Positions 3,497-48,175 of a stretch of DNA of 64,000 nt are shown in pieces (the stretch's first letter is position 1; every line of letters starts with the position of its first letter). The DNA is from Dehalococcoidia bacterium (lineage in GTDB: Bacteria > Chloroflexota > Dehalococcoidia > Plut-88900). A program made the translations under genes and the position numbers. The stretch lies in contig CBDFLQ010000006.1 of NCBI GenBank assembly GCA_965249275.1, forward strand, positions 704,001 through 768,000. The letters are read 5' to 3'. The notes beneath the pieces were generated by a model. The model was given only the letters and a program-made list of their open reading frames with translations, was not told the DNA's origin and did no database searches.

Positions 3497-4240
3497 ATGA
3501 ACCTACGAAGAAGAATTGGATTGATCATGCCGGCCCAGGACTCGACCAGCGAGCCCGATTTCTCAATGGCCCTGGGCTTGAAGGACTACTCCATCCACGG
3601 CCAGCGTATTTGGGACGGCTTCGACATCTCCGGCACCGCACGCATGGACAGGATGAACACCGAGATCGATACCGCCGCCAAGTACCTGACACAGGCGGAA
3701 GTCGATGCCGTAGCCTACTGCTGCACCACCGGCAGTTTTTATCGGGGCCCGGGCTGGGACGTAGAGATCGTCGAAAAGCTGGAGGCCGCATCGGGAGTTC
3801 CCGCCGTTGCCACCACGCCCTCCGTTGCCGCCGCCCTTTCCCACATCGGGGCCAGGAAGATATCCGTAGTCACGCCATACCCACAATGGAACAACGACAG
3901 ACTGCGGGAATACTTCACGGCCAAGGGCTTCGAGGTCCTGAACGTCGATACCCCTGCTGACGCATCGGTGTTCGGGTTCAACATGTGCAACCACGACCCG
4001 GAGACCGTCCTCGAATACGGAGTCGAGCACTGCCTCCCGGAGGCCGACACCCTCCTGGTCTCCTGCACCGGCTGGCGTTCCTTGGAGGTCGTCGAAGAGC
4101 TGGAAGCCCGCACGGGGAAGATGGTGGTGACGGCAAACCAGGCCTCAATCTGGTGCCTCCTTAACAAGATGGGCTGGGATGCTTCAATAAGCGGCTGCGG
4201 CCAGCTCTTATCAAACAGGGCTCCGGCAGCAGTGGGGTAG
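3497..4240 (+). CDS. Maleate isomerase / Asp-Glu racemase family protein (paralog of 2588..3337)
   Basis: YCCTTGSF, VTPYP, SCTGW, VVTANQA. Confidence 0.85.
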   Translation: MNLRRRIGLIMPAQDSTSEPDFSMALGLKDYSIHGQRIWDGFDISGTARMDRMNTEIDTAAKYLTQAEVDAVAYCCTTGSFYRGPGWDVEIVEKLEAASGVPAVATTPSVAAALSHIGARKISVVTPYPQWNNDRLREYFTAKGFEVLNVDTPADASVFGFNMCNHDPETVLEYGVEHCLPEADTLLVSCTGWRSLEVVEELEARTGKMVVTANQASIWCLLNKMGWDASISGCGQLLSNRAPAAVG

Positions 4241-4275
4241 AAGCGGAGCTAATTTCCTAACCGGAATCGAGGTGC

Positions 4276-5394
4276 GTGTTGGCGGAATACAAGGTCATCT
4301 CAGCAGACTCCCATCTGAACGAGCCCCAGGAGGTCTACGACCGCCTCCCCGCCGAGTACCGCGCCCGTGCCCCGCGCATCGAGGTGCGGGACGACCAGCG
4401 TTACATCATCGTCGAGGGCCAGGGCCCGGCTCGCATCGAGGCCCCCAACCCCCTCAAAGAAGATGATATGAATCGCTACTGGCGGGACGACGAAGAGGTG
4501 GGCCGCGTCATGCACCGGGCCGGAGGCACCGACATCCCTCTCCGCCTCACCGATCAGGAAACCGATGGGGTCAGCGCCGAGGTCATCTATCCCCACGGCA
4601 CGTTCCACACCTTCTCCTCCAAGGACCCGGGGTTCCAGCTCGCTCTGTCCAGGGTCTACAACGACTACTATAACGAGGTCTTTGGCCCGCACCCGGACCG
4701 TTTCGTAGTCTCCGCGGTCGTCCCGACTCTGGATATAGACAACGCCGTGGAAGAGGCCACCCGGGTGGCTAACATGGGCTTTCGTTCAGCGTCCATACCC
4801 ATAAGCATGCCCATGCAGCCCTACAACGATCCCAGCTATGAGCCTTTCTGGTCGGCGATGGGCGATCTTGGCGTACCCCTGGCCCTCCATGTCTTCACCG
4901 ATGGCCCGACCGGCGAAGACGCCCCCACCGAGGTCAAGCGCTCCCGTCCGGGAGAGGACCTAGCCGGAGAAGTCGTAGAGATGGCTGCCGCCATGAAGCC
5001 CCTCTGCCTGCTGGTGGCTTCCGGCGTGCTGGAACGACACCCGGGCCTGAAGTTCGTGCTGGTCGAGTGCGGAATCGGCTGGTTGGCCTGGGTCCTCCAG
5101 ACCCTCGATGAGATGCACGAGAAGCGCCACATGTGGATCGAACCCCGCCTCCCGGACAGGCCCAGCGACTACTTCCGCAGGCAAGGCGGCGCCACTTTCG
5201 GCGACGACCTGGTCGGGCTCCGGATGAGGGACGTGACGGGTGTCGAGAGCCTGCTCTGGGGCAGTGACTACCCCCACGACGAGGGCACCTTCCCCCATTC
5301 CAGAGAGGTCATTGAGCGCACTTTCAAGGACGTTCCTGAAAATGAAAAGCGGATGATTGTCGGTGGGAACGCTGAGAGGATATACGGCTTCTAG
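4276..5394 (+). CDS. Amidohydrolase_2 family metal-dependent hydrolase/decarboxylase
   Basis: ISADSHLNEP, LALH, VECGIGW, WGSDYPH, GGNAERIY. Confidence 0.88.
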   Translation: MLAEYKVISADSHLNEPQEVYDRLPAEYRARAPRIEVRDDQRYIIVEGQGPARIEAPNPLKEDDMNRYWRDDEEVGRVMHRAGGTDIPLRLTDQETDGVSAEVIYPHGTFHTFSSKDPGFQLALSRVYNDYYNEVFGPHPDRFVVSAVVPTLDIDNAVEEATRVANMGFRSASIPISMPMQPYNDPSYEPFWSAMGDLGVPLALHVFTDGPTGEDAPTEVKRSRPGEDLAGEVVEMAAAMKPLCLLVASGVLERHPGLKFVLVECGIGWLAWVLQTLDEMHEKRHMWIEPRLPDRPSDYFRRQGGATFGDDLVGLRMRDVTGVESLLWGSDYPHDEGTFPHSREVIERTFKDVPENEKRMIVGGNAERIYGF

Positions 5395-16613: not shown

Positions 16614-17675
16614 TTGCCCAACCTCAGCATTCCCTCCAAGTCCGCCCTTCTTAAGATAATCTTAGTCCTTCTGTTCCTGGCCATTGGGGGAACTGCCGGA
16701 ACATTCAGTTATCTGGGATTCGTAGAACTGCACCAGCTCAATGAGTCCATCACTCAGGACCGTGAACGTCTTGCGCTGCTGGAAAGCGCCCCCACCCCTC
16801 AGCACACACCTACCCTTCAACCCGCACCCACCCCCCAACCCGTCCCCACGCCTCAGCCTACTCCTACAACCCAGCCAACTTCTACTCCCCAACCCGTCCC
16901 CACCCCCCAGCCCATTCCGACGCCTCAGCCCATCCCCACCCCTCAACCCACCTCTACTCCAATAACCTTGCCACCCACCGTCACCCCGATAAGCCTGCCC
17001 CCGTCCCTAACTCCCGTACCCACGTGGAATGATCTGTACACACAAATCAGGCGCTCCGTGGTGAAAGTGGAAACTACTGGGGGCAGCGGGACCGGTTGGG
17101 TGTATGAAGAGGGATGGCTGGTCACGGCAGCCCATGTCGTCAAGGGTTACAGGACCGTGACCGTTCACTATCAAGACTCGGAAGGTCAAGAGAAGTCCGC
17201 TATGGTAAACGTGCTGGTCAGAGACCGGCTCCATGATGTCGCAGCCATCGAGCTAAAGGACATAGACCTCCCGCCCATCCCTGGCCGGCGAGATGTGGAA
17301 GCCAAGGATGGCGGCGAGGCTGTTATGACTGTGGGCTACTCATCCGACCCGCCAATTGGATGGCCGAGCACAAGGGTTGGCATCCTGACTACCGTCTCCG
17401 AATTACCTTGGCTCGAAAACCTTAAGGCCATCGAGACCGACGCCTCATTTGACCCAGGTGATTCGGGAGGTCCAATTCTGGATCTCAACGGCAACGTCAT
17501 AGGCATAGCCCAGGCCACCGTCATAAGGTCAGGCTCACAACGGATACAGGGCAGACAATTCGCCGTGGGAATACGAGAGGTCGAAGCCGTATGGGAGCAA
17601 CTCAAGCGTAATGAGCGCCTGAACCAGGGCTCAGACTACTGGATATATCGCCGCTCTGAAGGCCCCGACGAGTAG
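16614..17675 (+). CDS. Membrane-anchored trypsin-like (S1C) serine protease with Pro/Thr/Gln-rich linker
   Basis: N-terminal TM, PTPQP repeats, catalytic triad motifs TAAHVV, HDVA, PGDSGGP. Confidence 0.85.
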   Translation: MPNLSIPSKSALLKIILVLLFLAIGGTAGTFSYLGFVELHQLNESITQDRERLALLESAPTPQHTPTLQPAPTPQPVPTPQPTPTTQPTSTPQPVPTPQPIPTPQPIPTPQPTSTPITLPPTVTPISLPPSLTPVPTWNDLYTQIRRSVVKVETTGGSGTGWVYEEGWLVTAAHVVKGYRTVTVHYQDSEGQEKSAMVNVLVRDRLHDVAAIELKDIDLPPIPGRRDVEAKDGGEAVMTVGYSSDPPIGWPSTRVGILTTVSELPWLENLKAIETDASFDPGDSGGPILDLNGNVIGIAQATVIRSGSQRIQGRQFAVGIREVEAVWEQLKRNERLNQGSDYWIYRRSEGPDE

Positions 17676-17772
17676 ATTGGCCTCCCTCCCGCAAAGTTCT
17701 ACGATCTAGCGCTGCCTCTCGTGCATATAGCTTGTAATCAAACTTACTTGTTCACTAAAGGAGTATGCAAAC

Positions 17773-18537
17773 ATGCCTAACACCCTGGCTGGAAAAGTTG
17801 TCATAGTTACCGGAGGTGGCTCGGGCATCGGGAAGTCGGCCGTCATGCTGCTGGTCCGAGAAGGCGCCAAGGTCATGATCGCCGACATCGACGAGCAAGC
17901 TGGGCAAGAGACGGCTGCGCTCATCCGAGCCCGTGGTGGAGAGTCCGGCTTCGTTCGAACGGACGTCTCTCGGGAGTCGGATGTCGAGGCGATGGTCGCC
18001 CGCACCATCGAGACTTTCGGCAGGCTGGACTGCGCCTTCAACAATGCCGGCATCCTCGAAGAGGGCAGCCCCGACGTCACCGGCTACTCGCTGGACCTCT
18101 GGAACCGGGTCATAAGTATCAACCTGACCGGCGTTTGGCTTTGCATGAAACACGAAATCCCGGAGATGCTCAAGCAAGGCGGCGGCGCGATTGTCAACAA
18201 TGCGTCGGTCGCCGGCTTCGTCGGACTCCCCGGTGCGACGGCCCTCGTAGCCAGCAAACATGGCGTCGTCGGCCTCACGAAGAATGCGGCCCTCGAATAC
18301 GCCGAGCGCGGAATCCGGGTGAACGCTGTGTGCCCGAGCTTCATCAAGACCCCGATACTCGAGCCCTATTTCGCCGCCTACCCAGAGGAAGAGATGGAGA
18401 TGGTTCGCAAAGAGCCGATCGGCAGAATGGGCGCCCCCGAGGAGGTCGCCGAGGCCGCAGTCTGGCTCCTATCAGACGCCGCATCATTCGTCACCGGCCA
18501 CTCCATGGTCGTAGACGGCGGCTACACCGCTATGTAG
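17773..18537 (+). CDS. Short-chain dehydrogenase/reductase
   Basis: TGGGSGIG, NNAG, NASVAG, LVASK (catalytic YxxxK Tyr appears replaced by Leu), VDGG. Confidence 0.9.
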   Translation: MPNTLAGKVVIVTGGGSGIGKSAVMLLVREGAKVMIADIDEQAGQETAALIRARGGESGFVRTDVSRESDVEAMVARTIETFGRLDCAFNNAGILEEGSPDVTGYSLDLWNRVISINLTGVWLCMKHEIPEMLKQGGGAIVNNASVAGFVGLPGATALVASKHGVVGLTKNAALEYAERGIRVNAVCPSFIKTPILEPYFAAYPEEEMEMVRKEPIGRMGAPEEVAEAAVWLLSDAASFVTGHSMVVDGGYTAM

Positions 18538-18599
18538 ACTGCACGGTGGATGTGATCCTTGCCCAGCCCAAATCCGTGGACTAGGGAATGGGCCAGTTC

Positions 18600-18732
18600 C
18601 CTCTCCCTCGTCGAGAGTTGTGCATTACCGTCATTCCTGCGGAGGCAGGAATCCAGGGGTAATGTGGGATAGGGTTCGATCCTCAGGGGCCGGGCCGCTC
18701 ATCCTGAGGTGACTCGAAGGGTCGAGCGGGGG
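18600..18732. repeat. Cluster of REP-like palindromes
   Basis: GTCATTCCTGCGGAGGCAGGAATCCA and CCGCTCATCCTGAG..TCGAAGGGTCGAGCGG; the latter has related copies near 11114, 25305 and 51850. Confidence 0.55.
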
Positions 18733-21302: not shown

Positions 21303-22613
21303 TTACTGGTACACAGCGTTCCATTCCGCCTGCAATCTGTCGGAGTTTTCACCTGCCCACCTCTCGTTTAGAAAGATGGCGTAGTCAAGGGTATCGGCTG
21401 TGAGAGGTAGCGAGTCTCTGACAGCGTCGTAGGCAGAGTCCTCTGCAATTACCTGCGCCCCCTTTAGGTTTACGGGACCATAGGTAATGCCCAGGCTCAC
21501 TGCAGCGTTTATCTCAGGGAAGGACGACCATGCGGCCCATAAGTTAGCCAGTAGATACGCATTGGGATTCGATTCCTTAAGCCCTGCAGGCATGCCGAAC
21601 ATATCGGTGCTAACTATGTATCCGGCCTCCCAATCCAACGCAAGGGGAGCGTCGTCCTGCCTTACCGCGTCGTAGATCCGGCCATTCCCACAAACCCCCA
21701 TAACTATGTCACGGGAAATGAGAAGCTCAGGACACTGGACACCGAATTCGGTAAAAATTACACCGCCCTTGGGGTCTTCGCTTAGCTCCCTCCATTTATC
21801 GAAGGAACGGTCGATCTCCTCTTGGGTGAAAGGTCCCCCCAAGAAGGTTCGCCCTTCTTCGGTTTCCAGGAGGCTGGGATCATCCGCCAATAGGCCGATG
21901 GTAGGATTATGAGGCCACCAGGAATTAGTGGCACGTCGTCCAGGGAATTTCTCGGTGTCAAAGAAGTCGGCCCAGGAGTCGGGTTGCTCGGTGCCCTCAG
22001 GATATTCATCGGTGTTGTAGCCGAGGACGTATGTCCAGGAGCTACCCCCTCCGGCGCCGTGTGGGAAGTTTTCCTGAACTGAAGGGAGCAAGTCAGGGAA
22101 GGTCCCACCTACTATGGCCATGTCAAAAGGCTCCAGGTCCCCGGTTATGATAAAAGACCTGATGTCCTGGCTGCCCAGATCGACTATGTGCCATTCAGGG
22201 TCCTCTATGTTAGCCATGGCACGGAACTTGCTATACACTACCGGGCTGTCCTCAATTATTACAATGCCGAACTTCTCTTCGAAAGGTGTAAGGAGAGCTG
22301 CCCGCTGGGCATTCTCGTAGGCGCCGCCCCACGAAACCCAAGTGAAGCTCTCGCCTCTGTGCTTCTCCAACTCCGCCTCTAGCTCTTCAAGGGTCGCCGG
22401 CTCCTCCGGCGTCCACTCCTCTATAGGTCTAATTTGTGGCTCCGGGGTGGGAGTAACCTGGGCTGCCAGAGTTGCCGTTGCCGGTGCGGGAGTATCATCG
22501 CCTCCGCAGGCGGCTGCCACCATTGCAATAGATATCAGGAGCCCCAAGATTCCTAGCACAACTATGTGCCGCTTAGATAGCCCTTTTCCGCGTATTCCAC
22601 GTAGCCTACTCAT
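21303..22613 (-). CDS. Orphan ABC substrate-binding lipoprotein (PotD/PotF-like)
   Basis: Lipobox VAAAC, SWGGAY, YNTD..P.SWADFFDTEKFPGRR, NGR, YGPVN. Confidence 0.85.
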   Translation of the reverse strand: MSRLRGIRGKGLSKRHIVVLGILGLLISIAMVAAACGGDDTPAPATATLAAQVTPTPEPQIRPIEEWTPEEPATLEELEAELEKHRGESFTWVSWGGAYENAQRAALLTPFEEKFGIVIIEDSPVVYSKFRAMANIEDPEWHIVDLGSQDIRSFIITGDLEPFDMAIVGGTFPDLLPSVQENFPHGAGGGSSWTYVLGYNTDEYPEGTEQPDSWADFFDTEKFPGRRATNSWWPHNPTIGLLADDPSLLETEEGRTFLGGPFTQEEIDRSFDKWRELSEDPKGGVIFTEFGVQCPELLISRDIVMGVCGNGRIYDAVRQDDAPLALDWEAGYIVSTDMFGMPAGLKESNPNAYLLANLWAAWSSFPEINAAVSLGITYGPVNLKGAQVIAEDSAYDAVRDSLPLTADTLDYAIFLNERWAGENSDRLQAEWNAVYQ

Positions 22614-23389
22614 CTGCCTCCTCCCGAAACTTAGCTTCCCTCGTGGGATAGCATCACATACCTATTAGCTCGCTTTGGGACTCCTTCTCACTAGTGTGAT
22701 ATATTTAGCAATATTCAACGTTCGTTCAATCACAAAAACTGGGACAACTCTTGTCAACTGTTTCCCACTTCCACCCGAATCGGCCTCCTGGAGGATTCAA
22801 CACGCTTAGTAGAAATTCGTGCCGGGGATAAAATAGCGTCAGGAATGGGTTGTTACCGGGATGCCGACGGGGGGGTTAGAAAGCCCACACCCTCCAATAT
22901 ACAGTAGAGTAATTCTCACTGATCCACTCTCAGGGGCAGCGTAGGAAGAAAGGAATAGACACCGGGTCTGCCTAAGAAGTTCATAGACTCCTTTATAGCG
23001 ACGTTTCCGCTACCCGCTTTAAATACATCGTACATGCGAATGGGAGTTACGTCAAGAAGTGAGGATTGTTTCACTATGTATTAAAGCCATGAGAATCTAC
23101 TTGCCAGAAGAGATTTTGATCATCCTTTCCGTGGTTGAATCATGCAGCCTTACAGGTCCAGAAGGCCTTTAGAACGGCTGCCAACACTTCTCGCAACAAT
23201 ACCCCACCCCCCGCTTGGTAACGATATATCAATAAAACAGGGCGGGTGGGCGGGACTCCACTTAATCCCGGGAGTAGGGACGCCACCCCTCCCCCGTAGG
23301 GGTGGTTCGCGAACCGCTCTGACCTCTGAGTAACCCCACCTCCGTCTCCGCCGCATCGAGCCATGTGCAACAAAAGTGACACGAACCCC

Positions 23390-44339: not shown

Positions 44340-45704
44340 TTAGGGGCTTGCCATGCTTCGTATCAGGGCTATGGCAAGGTTTACGACATCACCCAACAGG
44401 CCCGAGTCAACGAATTCCAGGGTGTCCTCGGCGGTGTTGACCCGGGAAAGGTCGTCACCGAAGAAGAACACCACGGGTATCTCCACCGACTGGAAGACAA
44501 CGTGGTCGCTGATCAGCCCCTCGGGCTCTCGGCCCGGGGTGATAGTGACTCCAAGCTCCGTACCCAGCCGCAAGACCTCCAGTTGAAACGCCGGCTCTCC
44601 AGCGATAATAGCCCTTTCACCGCTCCCAACATCGTCCAGGTTGATCATAGCAAGCACGCTGCCCGTGTTGTCACCTATGACGTTCGAAACGTATCGCTGG
44701 CTGCCTATGAGGCCGACCTCTTCCCCGCCGAAGGCCACGAATGTCACGTCCACGGCAAGGTCGTCGTCCTTTAGGGCTCGGGCGATGGTGAGCAAGGCTG
44801 CCGTCCCCGACGCATTGTCGTTCGCCCCGACCGACTCGGTGTCCGTATCGTAGTGCGCTCCGACTATAATCGTTGGCGCGCCGGCTATGGAGCCCTTCTT
44901 GGTCGCCACTACGTTGCGGCTCACCCGGTCTTTCGTCTCCACCTTGACCCGTACCCTCACCTCACCCGACTCCATCATCGCCAGAAGGGCCTGACCGTCT
45001 TCCTGGCTTATTGAAAGCGCCGGTATCTGGCCGGCAGTTTGAAGGGTGCCTGCGAAGTTCTCCGGCTCGCTGTTGTATATTATGACCGCCGAAGCGCCCG
45101 CGTCCCGAGCATTGCTGGCTTTAATTTCAAAGTCGGTCTCTCCCCGCCCGATTAGCGCCACGGCCCCGTCCAATCCATCCCCGGGGAAGTCTTCCGGCCT
45201 GCCTAGTCCTGCATCCACCAGCCTCGCTTCCACGTCCCCGAAACCCGTCCGATACATGAACAGCGATTCGATAACTTGCTCATCCTCGCCCATGACCCTC
45301 AGCCAAGGTTCATCACTGCTTATTAGTCTCAGGTCGAAGCCCCTGACCTCTGCCTCGTACCCAAAACTGCTAAGCTCGGCGGCAATGAATTCCGCGGCCG
45401 CAAGCTCTCCGTCCGTCGTAGCATTTCGTTCCGGGTAATCAGAAACTATGGTTTCCACGTATCCATAGGCTATATCACCCAAGTCAGGTGCGAAGGAAAC
45501 AGCGGTGGGCACGTTGACGCCCGGGGCGGAGATGGGGGTCGAGGTAGGAATTGCGATGGTGGGGGTCGGCGTGCCTGTTGTATCAATTGCCTGGGGGGTG
45601 AGTGCCTGCGCCTCAGTAGTTGCAGTGGCATCCCCACCGCCGCCACATGCGGCCGCAACCAGTACTGCCAGCATTGTAGCGGCCAAGATTTTGAATTTGA
45701 TCAT
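44340..45704 (-). CDS. M28 aminopeptidase-like lipoprotein with PA domain
   Basis: Lipobox VAAAC; ALIGRG..KASNARDAGA; GAHYD, GANDNASG, GEEVGL, SDH. Confidence 0.88.
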   Translation of the reverse strand: MIKFKILAATMLAVLVAAACGGGGDATATTEAQALTPQAIDTTGTPTPTIAIPTSTPISAPGVNVPTAVSFAPDLGDIAYGYVETIVSDYPERNATTDGELAAAEFIAAELSSFGYEAEVRGFDLRLISSDEPWLRVMGEDEQVIESLFMYRTGFGDVEARLVDAGLGRPEDFPGDGLDGAVALIGRGETDFEIKASNARDAGASAVIIYNSEPENFAGTLQTAGQIPALSISQEDGQALLAMMESGEVRVRVKVETKDRVSRNVVATKKGSIAGAPTIIVGAHYDTDTESVGANDNASGTAALLTIARALKDDDLAVDVTFVAFGGEEVGLIGSQRYVSNVIGDNTGSVLAMINLDDVGSGERAIIAGEPAFQLEVLRLGTELGVTITPGREPEGLISDHVVFQSVEIPVVFFFGDDLSRVNTAEDTLEFVDSGLLGDVVNLAIALIRSMASP

Positions 45705-45813
45705 CTAAACCTACGTCCTGTGTCCTCTCGGTGGGCACAGTAGAGTTTGGGACTAGCGGGGCTCATAAAACAATAACGTACATACAGTCATTTAGTTGCG
45801 CCCCTCAGCATAC

Positions 45814-45848
45814 AATAATGGGAAACTGCAGTGCAGTTTCCCATTATT
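45814..45848. terminator. Perfect 17-bp inverted repeat downstream of the FTR gene
   Basis: AATAATGGGAAACTGCA-g-TGCAGTTTCCCATTATT. Confidence 0.6.
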
Positions 45849-45869
45849 TACCTTGCTTAAGTTAGGGAA

Positions 45870-46301
45870 CTATTCCCCCCGACTTGCCGGCCCCCGAGCC
45901 GACTTCTTAGGCGCTCCGGTGTATTTATCATCCGGGAACAGCTCCTCACCGGGAGCCCCGCCCTCGCCGGCCACCGTGCTCATCGGCTCCTCGCCCGCTT
46001 CCATCTTGCGAAGAAACTCTTCGCTCACGAAGAACATTCATATACAGAATCCGTCCCGGGCTATGTCCTCGTGGTGCCTCTCGCAGGGGCAGATCTTCAT
46101 GCGATCCAGATCCGGATCGCCATCTACGATCATTCAGGGACAGTAGCGGTAGCCGAATTTCACCTCGTTCTTGGCTAGCCCCTTCTGCACCTCATCGACG
46201 ATCTCCGGGTCGGAGTAGAACTCGTAGGGTCCCTTCTCCACGTACTTCTCGGACATCTTTACGGCGCCCTTCAGGGCCTGCTCGAAGGTCTTCTTCTTCA
46301 A
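45870..46301 (-). CDS. Ferredoxin:thioredoxin reductase catalytic-subunit homolog with two selenocysteines (TGA 46136-46134 and 46040-46038)
   Basis: Read-through gives GLAKNEVKFGYRYCP-U-MIVDGDPDLDRMKICPCERHHEDIARDGFCI-U-MFFVSEE...stop at 45870; TTG 46301 is 7 nt from GGAGG; hairpins follow both UGAs. Confidence 0.88.
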
Positions 46302-46414
46302 CCTCATTCCTCCTTTGCTCTGGGGCCTGTGGTTCAATTATACCCCACCCCCTCCCTCAAAACCCGTATAATCTGCGTACGCACTCTACCCCTAGCCACT
46401 CACGGGAGGCAGCA

Positions 46415-47290
46415 ATGACCGAGTCCAATCTCTCCAACTGGGGCCGCTGGGGTCCCGACGACCAGATCGGCGTCCTAAACCTTCTACAGGGCCGGGGCCA
46501 TGTCCTCAAGGCCTTCAGCATGGTCAAGGAAGGCAAGATATACAGCCTCGCCGTGCCCCTAGAGAAGGACGGGCCCCAGATGCCCACCTTCCACAAGACC
46601 TGGCGCGTCTCCCACGTCGCCGAGCGCAAGGACCCCGACCTCTCGATCATCGATGACGTCATAGTCATGGAGACTCACTCCGGCACACACATCGACGCCT
46701 TAGGCCACGTCTGGGCCGACGGCCAGTTCTATAACGGATTCTCCTCCGACGAATTCGCCAGCAGCCGGGGAGTTGAACGTACGGGCATTGAGAACGTCCG
46801 CCACATCATCGGGCGGGGCGTGATGCTGGACGTAGCCGCCTATAGGGGCGTAGACCACCTCCAGGAGGCCGAGGCCGTCACCCCGGAAGACCTCGACGGC
46901 GCTGCACAGGCCCAGGGAATCGCCCTCGAACCCGGAGACGTGGTAATGATTCGCACCGGCTGGTATACCCTCTTCGAAAAGGACCGCGCCCGATGGGCCT
47001 CCTCCTTCCCCGGCCCCGATGCCTCCGTCCTCCCCTGGCTGAAGGAGCACGACGTTTGCGCCATCGGCACCGATCACCCAACCTGCGAGCGCAGGATCAA
47101 GGTCGGCAGCCCCGAGGGTGGCCTTCCACTCCACCGCTACGCCCTTAGGGATCTTGGCGTCTACATCCTCGAAAACCTCGACCTGGAGGGCCTAGCCCGG
47201 GACAAGGTCTACGAGTTTCTGTTCATCGGCGCACCCCTTCGCCTGACTCACGCCACCGGTTCCCCCTGGAACCCCCTGGCCATCATATAG
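46415..47290 (+). CDS. Cyclase family (kynurenine formamidase-like) metal hydrolase
   Basis: [40 protein letters not shown]. Confidence 0.88.
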   Translation: MTESNLSNWGRWGPDDQIGVLNLLQGRGHVLKAFSMVKEGKIYSLAVPLEKDGPQMPTFHKTWRVSHVAERKDPDLSIIDDVIVMETHSGTHIDALGHVWADGQFYNGFSSDEFASSRGVERTGIENVRHIIGRGVMLDVAAYRGVDHLQEAEAVTPEDLDGAAQAQGIALEPGDVVMIRTGWYTLFEKDRARWASSFPGPDASVLPWLKEHDVCAIGTDHPTCERRIKVGSPEGGLPLHRYALRDLGVYILENLDLEGLARDKVYEFLFIGAPLRLTHATGSPWNPLAII

Positions 47291-47302: not shown

Positions 47303-48175
47303 ATGACTAACGAAAAGCTTTCAAACTGGGGCCGCTGGGGCCCCGACGACCAGATAGGGGTCCTGAATCTGCTCCAGAACTCTTCCTCAGTACTTGATGC
47401 TATAAAGCTGGTAAAGAAGGGGGACGTATACAGCCTCGCCGTGCCCCTGGAAAAGGACGGTCCCCAGTTCCCCCTCTTCCACAAGACCTGGCGCGTCTCC
47501 CACTGGCAGCACCTCCACGATCCCGATCTCGACATCATCGACGATGTGATCGCCATGGAAACCCACTCCGGCTCTCACATCGACGGTCTGGGACACTCCT
47601 GGCACGACGGACAGTTCTACAACGGCTTCTCCTCAGACAAGTACGCCAGCAGCCGGGGCGTCGAGCGCCTGGGCATCGAGAATGTGCGCCACATCTTCGG
47701 CCGCGGCGTCATGCTCGACGTCGCAGCCTATAAGGGAGTCGACCACCTCGGCCCCGCCGAGCCCGTCACCGCCGATGACCTGGACAACGTCGCCGCCGCC
47801 CAAGGCGTCGACCTAAAGCCCGGCGACGTGGTTTTGGTCCGCACCGGCTGGTACACCCTCTTCGGTAAGGACCGAGCCCGGTGGGCTACATCATTCCCAG
47901 GCCCCGACGCCTCCGTGCTCCCCTGGCTCAAAGAGCACGACGTGGTAGCCATAGGCACCGACCATCCCGCCTGTGAGCTCTTCGAAAACTTGGAAGAGCC
48001 CGGGGATACACCCCTCCACCGGCACGGCCTCCGGGACCTGGGCGTCTATCTCCTCGAAAACATGGACTTGGAAGAACTGGCCCGGGACAAAGTCTACGAG
48101 TTCCTGTTCGTCGGGACGCCACTGCGCATCACCCATGGCACAGGCTCGCCCTGGAACCCTTTGGCAATAGCATGA
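47303..48175 (+). CDS. Cyclase family protein, tandem paralog
   Basis: Same motifs; long identical stretches with the preceding gene. Confidence 0.88.

Follow-up and report, generated by a model that had tools for sequence, protein, structure and literature searches.

An FtrB-family protein with two predicted selenocysteines in a Dehalococcoidia bacterium, and a small Cys3-His protein as its candidate partner

The window analysed here, a stretch of 64,000 nucleotides from a Dehalococcoidia bacterium, contains on its minus strand a gene for a catalytic-subunit homologue of ferredoxin:thioredoxin reductase (FTR), the frame of which includes two TGA codons, each followed by a SECIS-like hairpin. 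The features of the locus, in the direction of the gene, are:

46309–46314, minus strand: Shine-Dalgarno sequence AGGAGG, with a 7-nt spacer to the TTG start
45870–46301, minus strand: double-Sec FtrB coding sequence of 143 codons, with a TTG start at 46299–46301 and a TAG stop at 45870–45872, defined by translation and by its matches to PF02943 and NF041072
46134–46136, minus strand: first in-frame TGA, predicted Sec56 of CPU, aligned to the second Cys of FTR's first CPC motif
46101–46120, minus strand: SECIS-like hairpin 1, GCGAUCC / 6-nt loop / GGAUCGC, 13 nt after the TGA, with an invariant G in the loop
46038–46040, minus strand: second in-frame TGA, predicted Sec88 of CIU, aligned to the second Cys of FTR's CHC motif
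46008–46024, minus strand: SECIS-like hairpin 2, GCGAAGA / GUU / UCUUCGC, 13 nt after the TGA, with a loop that begins with an invariant G, then U
45820–45842, strand unassigned: 11-bp perfect inverted repeat GGGAAACTGCA / TGCAGTTTCCC, 28 nt 3′ of the stop codon

The frame from 46301 (or from an ATG at 46307) to the TAG codon contains exactly two in-frame TGAs, 96 nt or 32 codons apart, and reading through both gives the product ...YRYCPU-MIVDGDPDLDRMKI-CPC-ERHHEDIARDGF-CIU-MFFVSEEFLRK.... A preliminary description of this locus, made from the sequence alone, had given the coordinates 45870–46301, which are exact and match the conserved TTG start, and had read the two TGAs as CPU...CPC...CIU, as translation bears out; it also predicted that annotation would fragment the gene, and translation table 11 does split it into three ORFs of 67, 31 and 55 aa. 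The TTG at 46299–46301 is most likely the start codon on comparative grounds, because the TTG and Shine-Dalgarno sequence with its 7-nt spacer are kept in 10 of the 16 relatives' loci (those of same-genus relatives), and the ATG at 46307 is peculiar to the window sequence and absent from the relatives. Four residues, Cys54, Cys71, Cys73 and Cys86, are predicted to bind the 4Fe-4S cluster, and Sec56 and Sec88 to form the redox pair; the four ligand positions are invariant in the family, and the C-terminal 40 residues of the window protein form a Cys-free, low-complexity tail. The inverted repeat beyond the stop codon is a possible terminator and suggests that the gene is transcribed alone; a promoter and terminator scan of 45650–46480 called nothing, this repeat included. 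Divergent from the FtrB gene on the plus strand lie tandem paralogous putative cyclase genes (PF04199) at 46415–47290 and 47303–48175. The cyclase paralogues and an M28 peptidase were considered as functional partners and set aside, as they are common to the closest 8–10 loci only.

The family assignment is supported, well outside what chance would give, by two profile searches, both made with U written as C. The Pfam family PF02943 (FeThRed_B, the FTR catalytic beta chain) matches residues 16–111 across both TGAs (E = 9e-21), and the NCBIfam model NF041072 ('FtrB family double-selenoprotein', FtrB_double_U), a curated equivalog model with a cut-off of 160 bits, matches over profile positions 1–121 of 121 with 212.3 bits (E = 1.2e-63). 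A six-frame search of the genome with NF041072 gives 202.1 bits for the same gene, which is also the sole PF02943 member in the genome. We found no difference between the window protein and the FtrB_double_U family, with which it shares the full-length match, the two Sec at the redox-Cys positions and a candidate SECIS element after each UGA. In FTR the active disulfide joins the final Cys of motif 1 to that of motif 3, and the other four Cys bind the cluster. When the protein is aligned to the Synechocystis FTR (1dj7_A), CPU falls on CPC, CPC on CPC and CIU on CHC, which supports the earlier placing of the UGAs on the two redox-active Cys, with all four ligand Cys kept and the catalytic His replaced by Ile; the same replacement is seen in 80/80 of the public loci described below.

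The relationships to solved FTR-type enzymes show several patterns. First, the classical catalytic subunits (Synechocystis 1dj7_A and Arabidopsis 7bzk_A) belong to the same Pfam family and share its three Cx[C/U] motifs with their six conserved positions, but they have the form CPC-x16-CPC-x8-CHC with a catalytic His, whereas the window protein has x14/x12 spacing and CIU, and the similarity to the Synechocystis and plant sequences has an E value of only about 3e-4. Secondly, the classical enzyme is a heterodimer with a variable subunit, whereas the host here is a non-photosynthetic Dehalococcoidia bacterium in whose 87%-complete genome no match to the variable subunit (PF02941) was found, the control match being found in Synechococcus; the classical heterodimer thus does not apply. 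Thirdly, the nearest solved sequences are 7pwe_A and 4tpu_A (E about 1e-12), which have the same CPC-x14-CPC-x12-CxC spacing and likewise a residue other than His in motif 3 (Tyr, against Ile in the window protein), but which carry Cys at both redox positions and extra sequence (173 and 196 residues). The deposited titles of these entries are 'Rubredoxin' for 4tpu_A and 'Ferredoxin-thioredoxin reductase subunit B' for 7pwe_A. Enzymes of the 4tpu type, of which 4tpu itself is presumably the Methanosarcina acetivorans FTR-like ferredoxin:disulfide reductase, have a fused rubredoxin domain, whereas PF02943 is the only domain found in the window protein. By its Ile where FTR has the catalytic His, by the RHHED motif that follows CPC and is invariant in the double-Sec family, and by the x14/x12 spacing, the protein belongs with the FTR-like enzymes of archaea and bacteria and not with plant and cyanobacterial FTR; the first two of these features, and the failure to find a variable subunit, show that it is not a classical heterodimeric FTR.

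A protein of this kind has been predicted before. Zhang and Gladyshev 2008 (PMC2398784) describe an FTR homologue from Global Ocean Sampling data with two Sec at the two redox-active residues, name the same two residues of FTR as redox-active, and present predicted SECIS elements for the Sec-containing homologues. Their protein appears to be of the same kind as ours, with the subfamily (CIU, x14/x12) judged from their description and not from an alignment. Ferredoxin-thioredoxin reductase (COG4802, FtrB) is also entered in a table of prokaryotic selenoproteins in a 2022 review (PMC9312934), and a 2026 database paper (PMC13326102) gives Dehalococcoidia with 46–49 selenoprotein genes. The preliminary description implied that the double-Sec form was novel, which does not hold given the 2008 prediction and the existence of the curated model NF041072: the double-Sec FtrB belongs, as a typical example, to a selenoprotein family that had been described and curated before, and the identification is correct, not new. 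By title and abstract no biochemical study of a Sec-containing FTR was apparent in the literature covered, which lay outside the subscription journals; the titles and abstracts of PMC7690881, PMC13103439 and PMC4741004 are not suggestive of such biochemistry.

Both TGAs are conserved in every member of the family that was examined, as seen in three sets of genomes that overlap and are related to one another. Among 61 relatives searched, this genome included, all 16 with a match over the NF041072 cut-off have the double TGA in the form CP*...CPC...CI*. When 185,579 species genomes were scanned, 163 relatives came to light, and the best 80 of these, all from Dehalococcoidia or Chloroflexota MAGs, have TGA at both sites (80/80), with Ile between and a TGA-to-TGA distance of always 96 nt. 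In a sample of 401 genomes of the class Dehalococcoidia the family is present in 34 genomes from 10 taxonomic families, with two TGAs in 34/34, and in a phylum-wide sample of 401 genomes this genome alone exceeded the cut-off. The double-Sec FtrB is thus widespread in Dehalococcoidia, with a gene that table-11 ORF calling breaks up. The preliminary description had proposed a tblastn search for homologues alternating between UGA and Cys; both UGAs are kept throughout, and no alternation was seen, there being no Cys variant among the 16, the best 80 of 163 or the 34 members examined. Any Cys form would have ranked above the TGA forms in the tblastn scoring. The lack of Cys variants among these members suggests that selenium is needed at both positions.

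The sequence between and beyond the TGAs varies in the manner of a coding region. In a gap-free DNA alignment of the 80 sequences, the entropies at codon positions 1, 2 and 3 are 0.24, 0.20 and 0.97 between the TGAs, and 0.36, 0.41 and 0.96 past the second, and as the variation is concentrated at third codon positions, the frame is under protein-level selection past both TGAs. This pattern and the PF02943 match across the TGAs agree with the earlier remark that family-like sequence continues past each of them. A decaying pseudogene, or three small ORFs made by two nonsense mutations, is the reading that table 11 would favour, with its three ORFs and with an ATG at the start of each fragment that follows a TGA. 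However, the same TGA codons recur in 16/16, 80/80 and 34/34 members of the overlapping sets, which span 10 or more taxonomic families and show no frameshift, and the constant 96-nt spacing and third-position variation are typical of one selected frame. The probability of this reading is negligible, and the conservation data in practice refute it. Unique nonsense mutations with downstream decay, which the preliminary description had named as the contrary finding, are ruled out by the TGA conservation together with the coding signal.

The two SECIS-like hairpins have identical geometry, each with a 13-nt spacer, a 7-bp stem and an invariant G in the loop. Across the 80 sequences, 94.5% of the cells of hairpin 1 and 94.1% of those of hairpin 2 are paired, compared to 23–56% when the 3′ partners are slid by 1–3 columns; in-register double-sided covariation was found at 0 of the 14 base pairs of both hairpins in these sequences, and the folds of the window sequence do not stand out against shuffles (z of -0.6 and -1.3). 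The codons that form the stems are strongly constrained. Those of hairpin 1 (GGC, GAT, GAG, GAT and CGC) are nearly fixed, with CGC in 77/80 and the two GAT codons in 64/80 and 70/80, and those of hairpin 2 include AGC in 76/80, CTT in 76/78 and CGC in 65/80; outside the stems Arg uses all six of its codons and Asp favours GAC. The normalised synonymous entropy is 0.34 for the 8 stem codons versus 0.69 for the 22 conserved codons elsewhere (p = 0.006 in a one-sided Mann-Whitney test, a rough value as the sequences are related). Three loci (L038, L122 and L130) rebuild hairpin 2 one base out of register with other amino acids, and two (L084 and L116) carry paired synonymous changes in it. We regard the hairpins as SECIS-like and of the bacterial type, with support from conservation and synonymous-site constraint and not from classical covariation. 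RNAalifold recovered both of them in part only. It also drew a 10-bp long-range helix of ACGAGGACAU with AUGUUCUUCGU (window 46027–46037 and 46063–46072, minus strand) with the second UGA in its loop; the helix is kept in nearly all 80 sequences through one-sided wobble changes only, and amino-acid conservation could explain it.

The preliminary description had also proposed to confirm the Sec machinery in the genome, and this was achieved for three of the four genes. The assembly (G000; seven contigs, 87% complete) contains selA (541 bits), selB (369 bits) and selD (389 bits), all over cut-off, and the selD gene itself (contig C2, 14217–15140; 1480–2500 of locus L012) carries a TGA in its reading frame, as part of an N-terminal ...CAGU... 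motif, which we take to be the usual catalytic position. The fourth, the tRNA-Sec gene selC, was not found in the assembly with Rfam model RF01852 run on the genome and four loci, with ARAGORN at default or lowered thresholds, or by a motif scan: those RF01852 matches that reached or approached the gathering score (48.1 bits or less) and were checked with ARAGORN proved to be tRNA-Ser, and this program called no tRNA-SeC at default and obvious false positives only at lowered thresholds. Among close relatives the Rfam tRNA-Sec match is present at 66–67 bits in 7/7 checked, and the one relative's locus run in ARAGORN (L046) gives a tRNA-SeC with anticodon TCA. Searches with 3-kb and 20-kb regions around the relatives' selC genes found no syntenic match in this assembly, only dispersed repeats (the 20-kb region being from the closest relative), and tRNA-Asn and tRNA-Ile are missing from it too. 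Because the assembly is 87% complete, other tRNAs are absent from it and the 20-kb neighbourhood of the closest relative's selC has no syntenic match, the absence of selC is likely due to an assembly gap. A dispersed repeat, a few hundred bases long, has dozens of copies per genome; it is seen for example at about 300–1300 and 17600–18700 of locus L053 from a relative (G005), with dozens of matches on contigs C2, C4, C5, C6 and C7 of the present genome.

From the conserved TGAs, the coding-type variation downstream of them, the SECIS-like hairpins, and the presence of selA, selB and a Sec-containing selD, we infer that both UGAs are decoded as Sec by SelB and Sec-tRNA. Decoding by other means, either through a Cys-charged tRNA-Sec-like tRNA acting via SelB or through genome-wide reassignment of UGA, is highly improbable. 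SelB is said to deliver such a Cys-charged tRNA in work of Mukai and co-workers from 2016, and the failure to find selC in the assembly and the presence of three odd tRNA-like genes of 89–91 nt with long variable arms on contig C5 could be taken to point the same way. However, TGA terminates ordinary genes here, as in the cyclase gene at 47303–48175, which ends in TGA where its neighbouring paralogue ends; selA and selD, needed solely for making Sec, are both present, and selD is itself UGA-containing; tRNA-Sec is present in all seven relatives checked, with a TCA anticodon in L046; and the odd tRNAs have no UCA anticodon but GCC and UGC. Nothing that bears on the recoding of UGA as Cys in Dehalococcoidia was found in PMC5424206.

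The three contig C5 genes are an observation in their own right. They lie within 3 kb of one another, at 382659–382747, 383323–383411 and 385421–385511; ARAGORN calls two of them, as Gly(GCC) and Ala(UGC), and both of the drawn ones have encoded CCA ends, while the third has GCC in its anticodon loop and a sub-threshold Rfam tRNA-Sec match of 34.6 bits. They may be allo-tRNA-like genes, a class reportedly described by Mukai and co-workers in 2017.

We hold, with high confidence, that the gene encodes a genuine double-Sec FtrB, a single-domain FTR catalytic-subunit homologue of 143 residues whose UGAs are read as Sec and which would work by an FTR-like redox mechanism. By homology to FTR, Cys54, Cys71, Cys73 and Cys86 would hold the 4Fe-4S cluster, and Sec56 and Sec88 would adjoin it, forming a diselenide active site when oxidised. 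Single electrons would be supplied by a low-potential donor, either ferredoxin or another small metalloprotein, the first of them splitting the Se–Se bond to leave Sec88 cluster-bound and Sec56 as a free selenolate. Sec56 would then attack the disulfide of a thioredoxin-like or other protein substrate, and with the second electron the substrate would leave in its reduced form. A diselenide set against a 4Fe-4S cluster would, if true, be an unusually low-potential redox switch.

A candidate partner emerges from the neighbourhoods of the double-Sec genes, in which ORFs within 4 kb of the gene were clustered in 81 loci. In 40 of the 80 public loci (among L069–L133) an ORF of about 100 residues lies directly upstream on the same strand, some 200–650 nt before the first TGA, and in one further genome (G045) its gene divergently adjoins the double-Sec gene. 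A set of 41 sequences has invariant C44, C46, C88 and H91 in a CxC...CxxH arrangement, from which metal binding may be predicted. Pfam gave no family for this protein, with 4 and then with all 41 members; it has 168 database clusters at E of 0.001 or less, and among the 120 listed, all of the source-named ones are 'hypothetical protein'. The predicted fold is confident (pLDDT 86.8), with no clear match in the PDB (best Foldseek E of 0.036, best VIA-align Z of 4.6) and a best ESM Atlas score of 0.78, which is not informative. A likeness to the delta subunit of sarcosine oxidase, which binds zinc, was considered and is unsupported, there being no SoxD family among the Pfam matches at E of 5 or less. 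The copy in the present genome lies outside the window, on contig C6 at 294388–294681 (4013–4306 of locus L134), and is followed 25 nt on by a gene for a DAO-family FAD oxidoreductase.

The distribution of the protein of about 100 aa is nested within that of the double-Sec FtrB. Among the 401 class genomes it is present in 18, every one of which belongs to the 34 double-Sec genomes, and in 0/367 of those lacking the double-Sec gene; among the 61 relatives it is present in 14, 14/14 with the double-Sec gene, and in 0/45 of those without. These counts come from related genomes, and the co-occurrence reduces to about 5 of 10 taxonomic families. From this comparison of genomes the association is real, not obligatory, and the small protein is a candidate partner of the double-Sec FtrB; it may be the sole item in this analysis that adds something new, and the nested co-occurrence makes it a concrete first candidate for experimenters.

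The partnership could go further, with the double-Sec enzyme working not with thioredoxin and ferredoxin but in a dedicated system in which the small protein would be a metal-centre electron donor or a specific substrate, the donor role being like the one that the fused rubredoxin may play in 4tpu-type enzymes. We consider this reading possible but tentative, and on present evidence rather unlikely. It draws on the nested co-occurrence, the upstream or divergently adjacent position of the gene, the invariant Cys and His residues, the confident fold with neither a clear PDB match nor a Pfam family, and the DAO-family gene, which follows the small gene in 11/11 loci fetched from this genome's taxonomic family. 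However, 16 of the 34 double-Sec genomes do not have the small protein, including one that is 99% complete (G040), in the present genome about 455 kb of one contig separates the two genes, kinship lowers the weight of the co-occurrence, and the motif is all that points to a metal. If the dedicated system were real, it would form a new electron chain in Dehalococcoidia, from flavoprotein to small metalloprotein to an Fe-S/diselenide enzyme.

Other FTR-like proteins of the phylum differ from the double-Sec FtrB in the number of Sec residues and in their added sequence. Single-Sec proteins of Chloroflexota such as L049 (CPU..CPC..CRC) likewise have Sec at the first (nucleophile) position, but contain one Sec only, score 85–91 bits, which is below the NF041072 cut-off, and have a 295-residue open frame with a C-terminal extension. 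L049 itself is from another Chloroflexota lineage (contig C292 of G107; minus strand of the locus, near position 1648), and its extension appears by eye to be glutaredoxin-like. Rubredoxin-fused FTR-like forms with Cys are present in other Dehalococcoidia (L040 and L041). If the by-eye glutaredoxin reading is right, the rubredoxin-fused and glutaredoxin-like-extended relatives fit small metalloprotein donors and thioredoxin-fold substrates. A weak second FTR-like match of 29.7 bits, with no TGA, is located at 22465–22782 (minus strand) on contig C120 of G040, where it divergently adjoins the double-Sec gene at 23035–23382 (L038).
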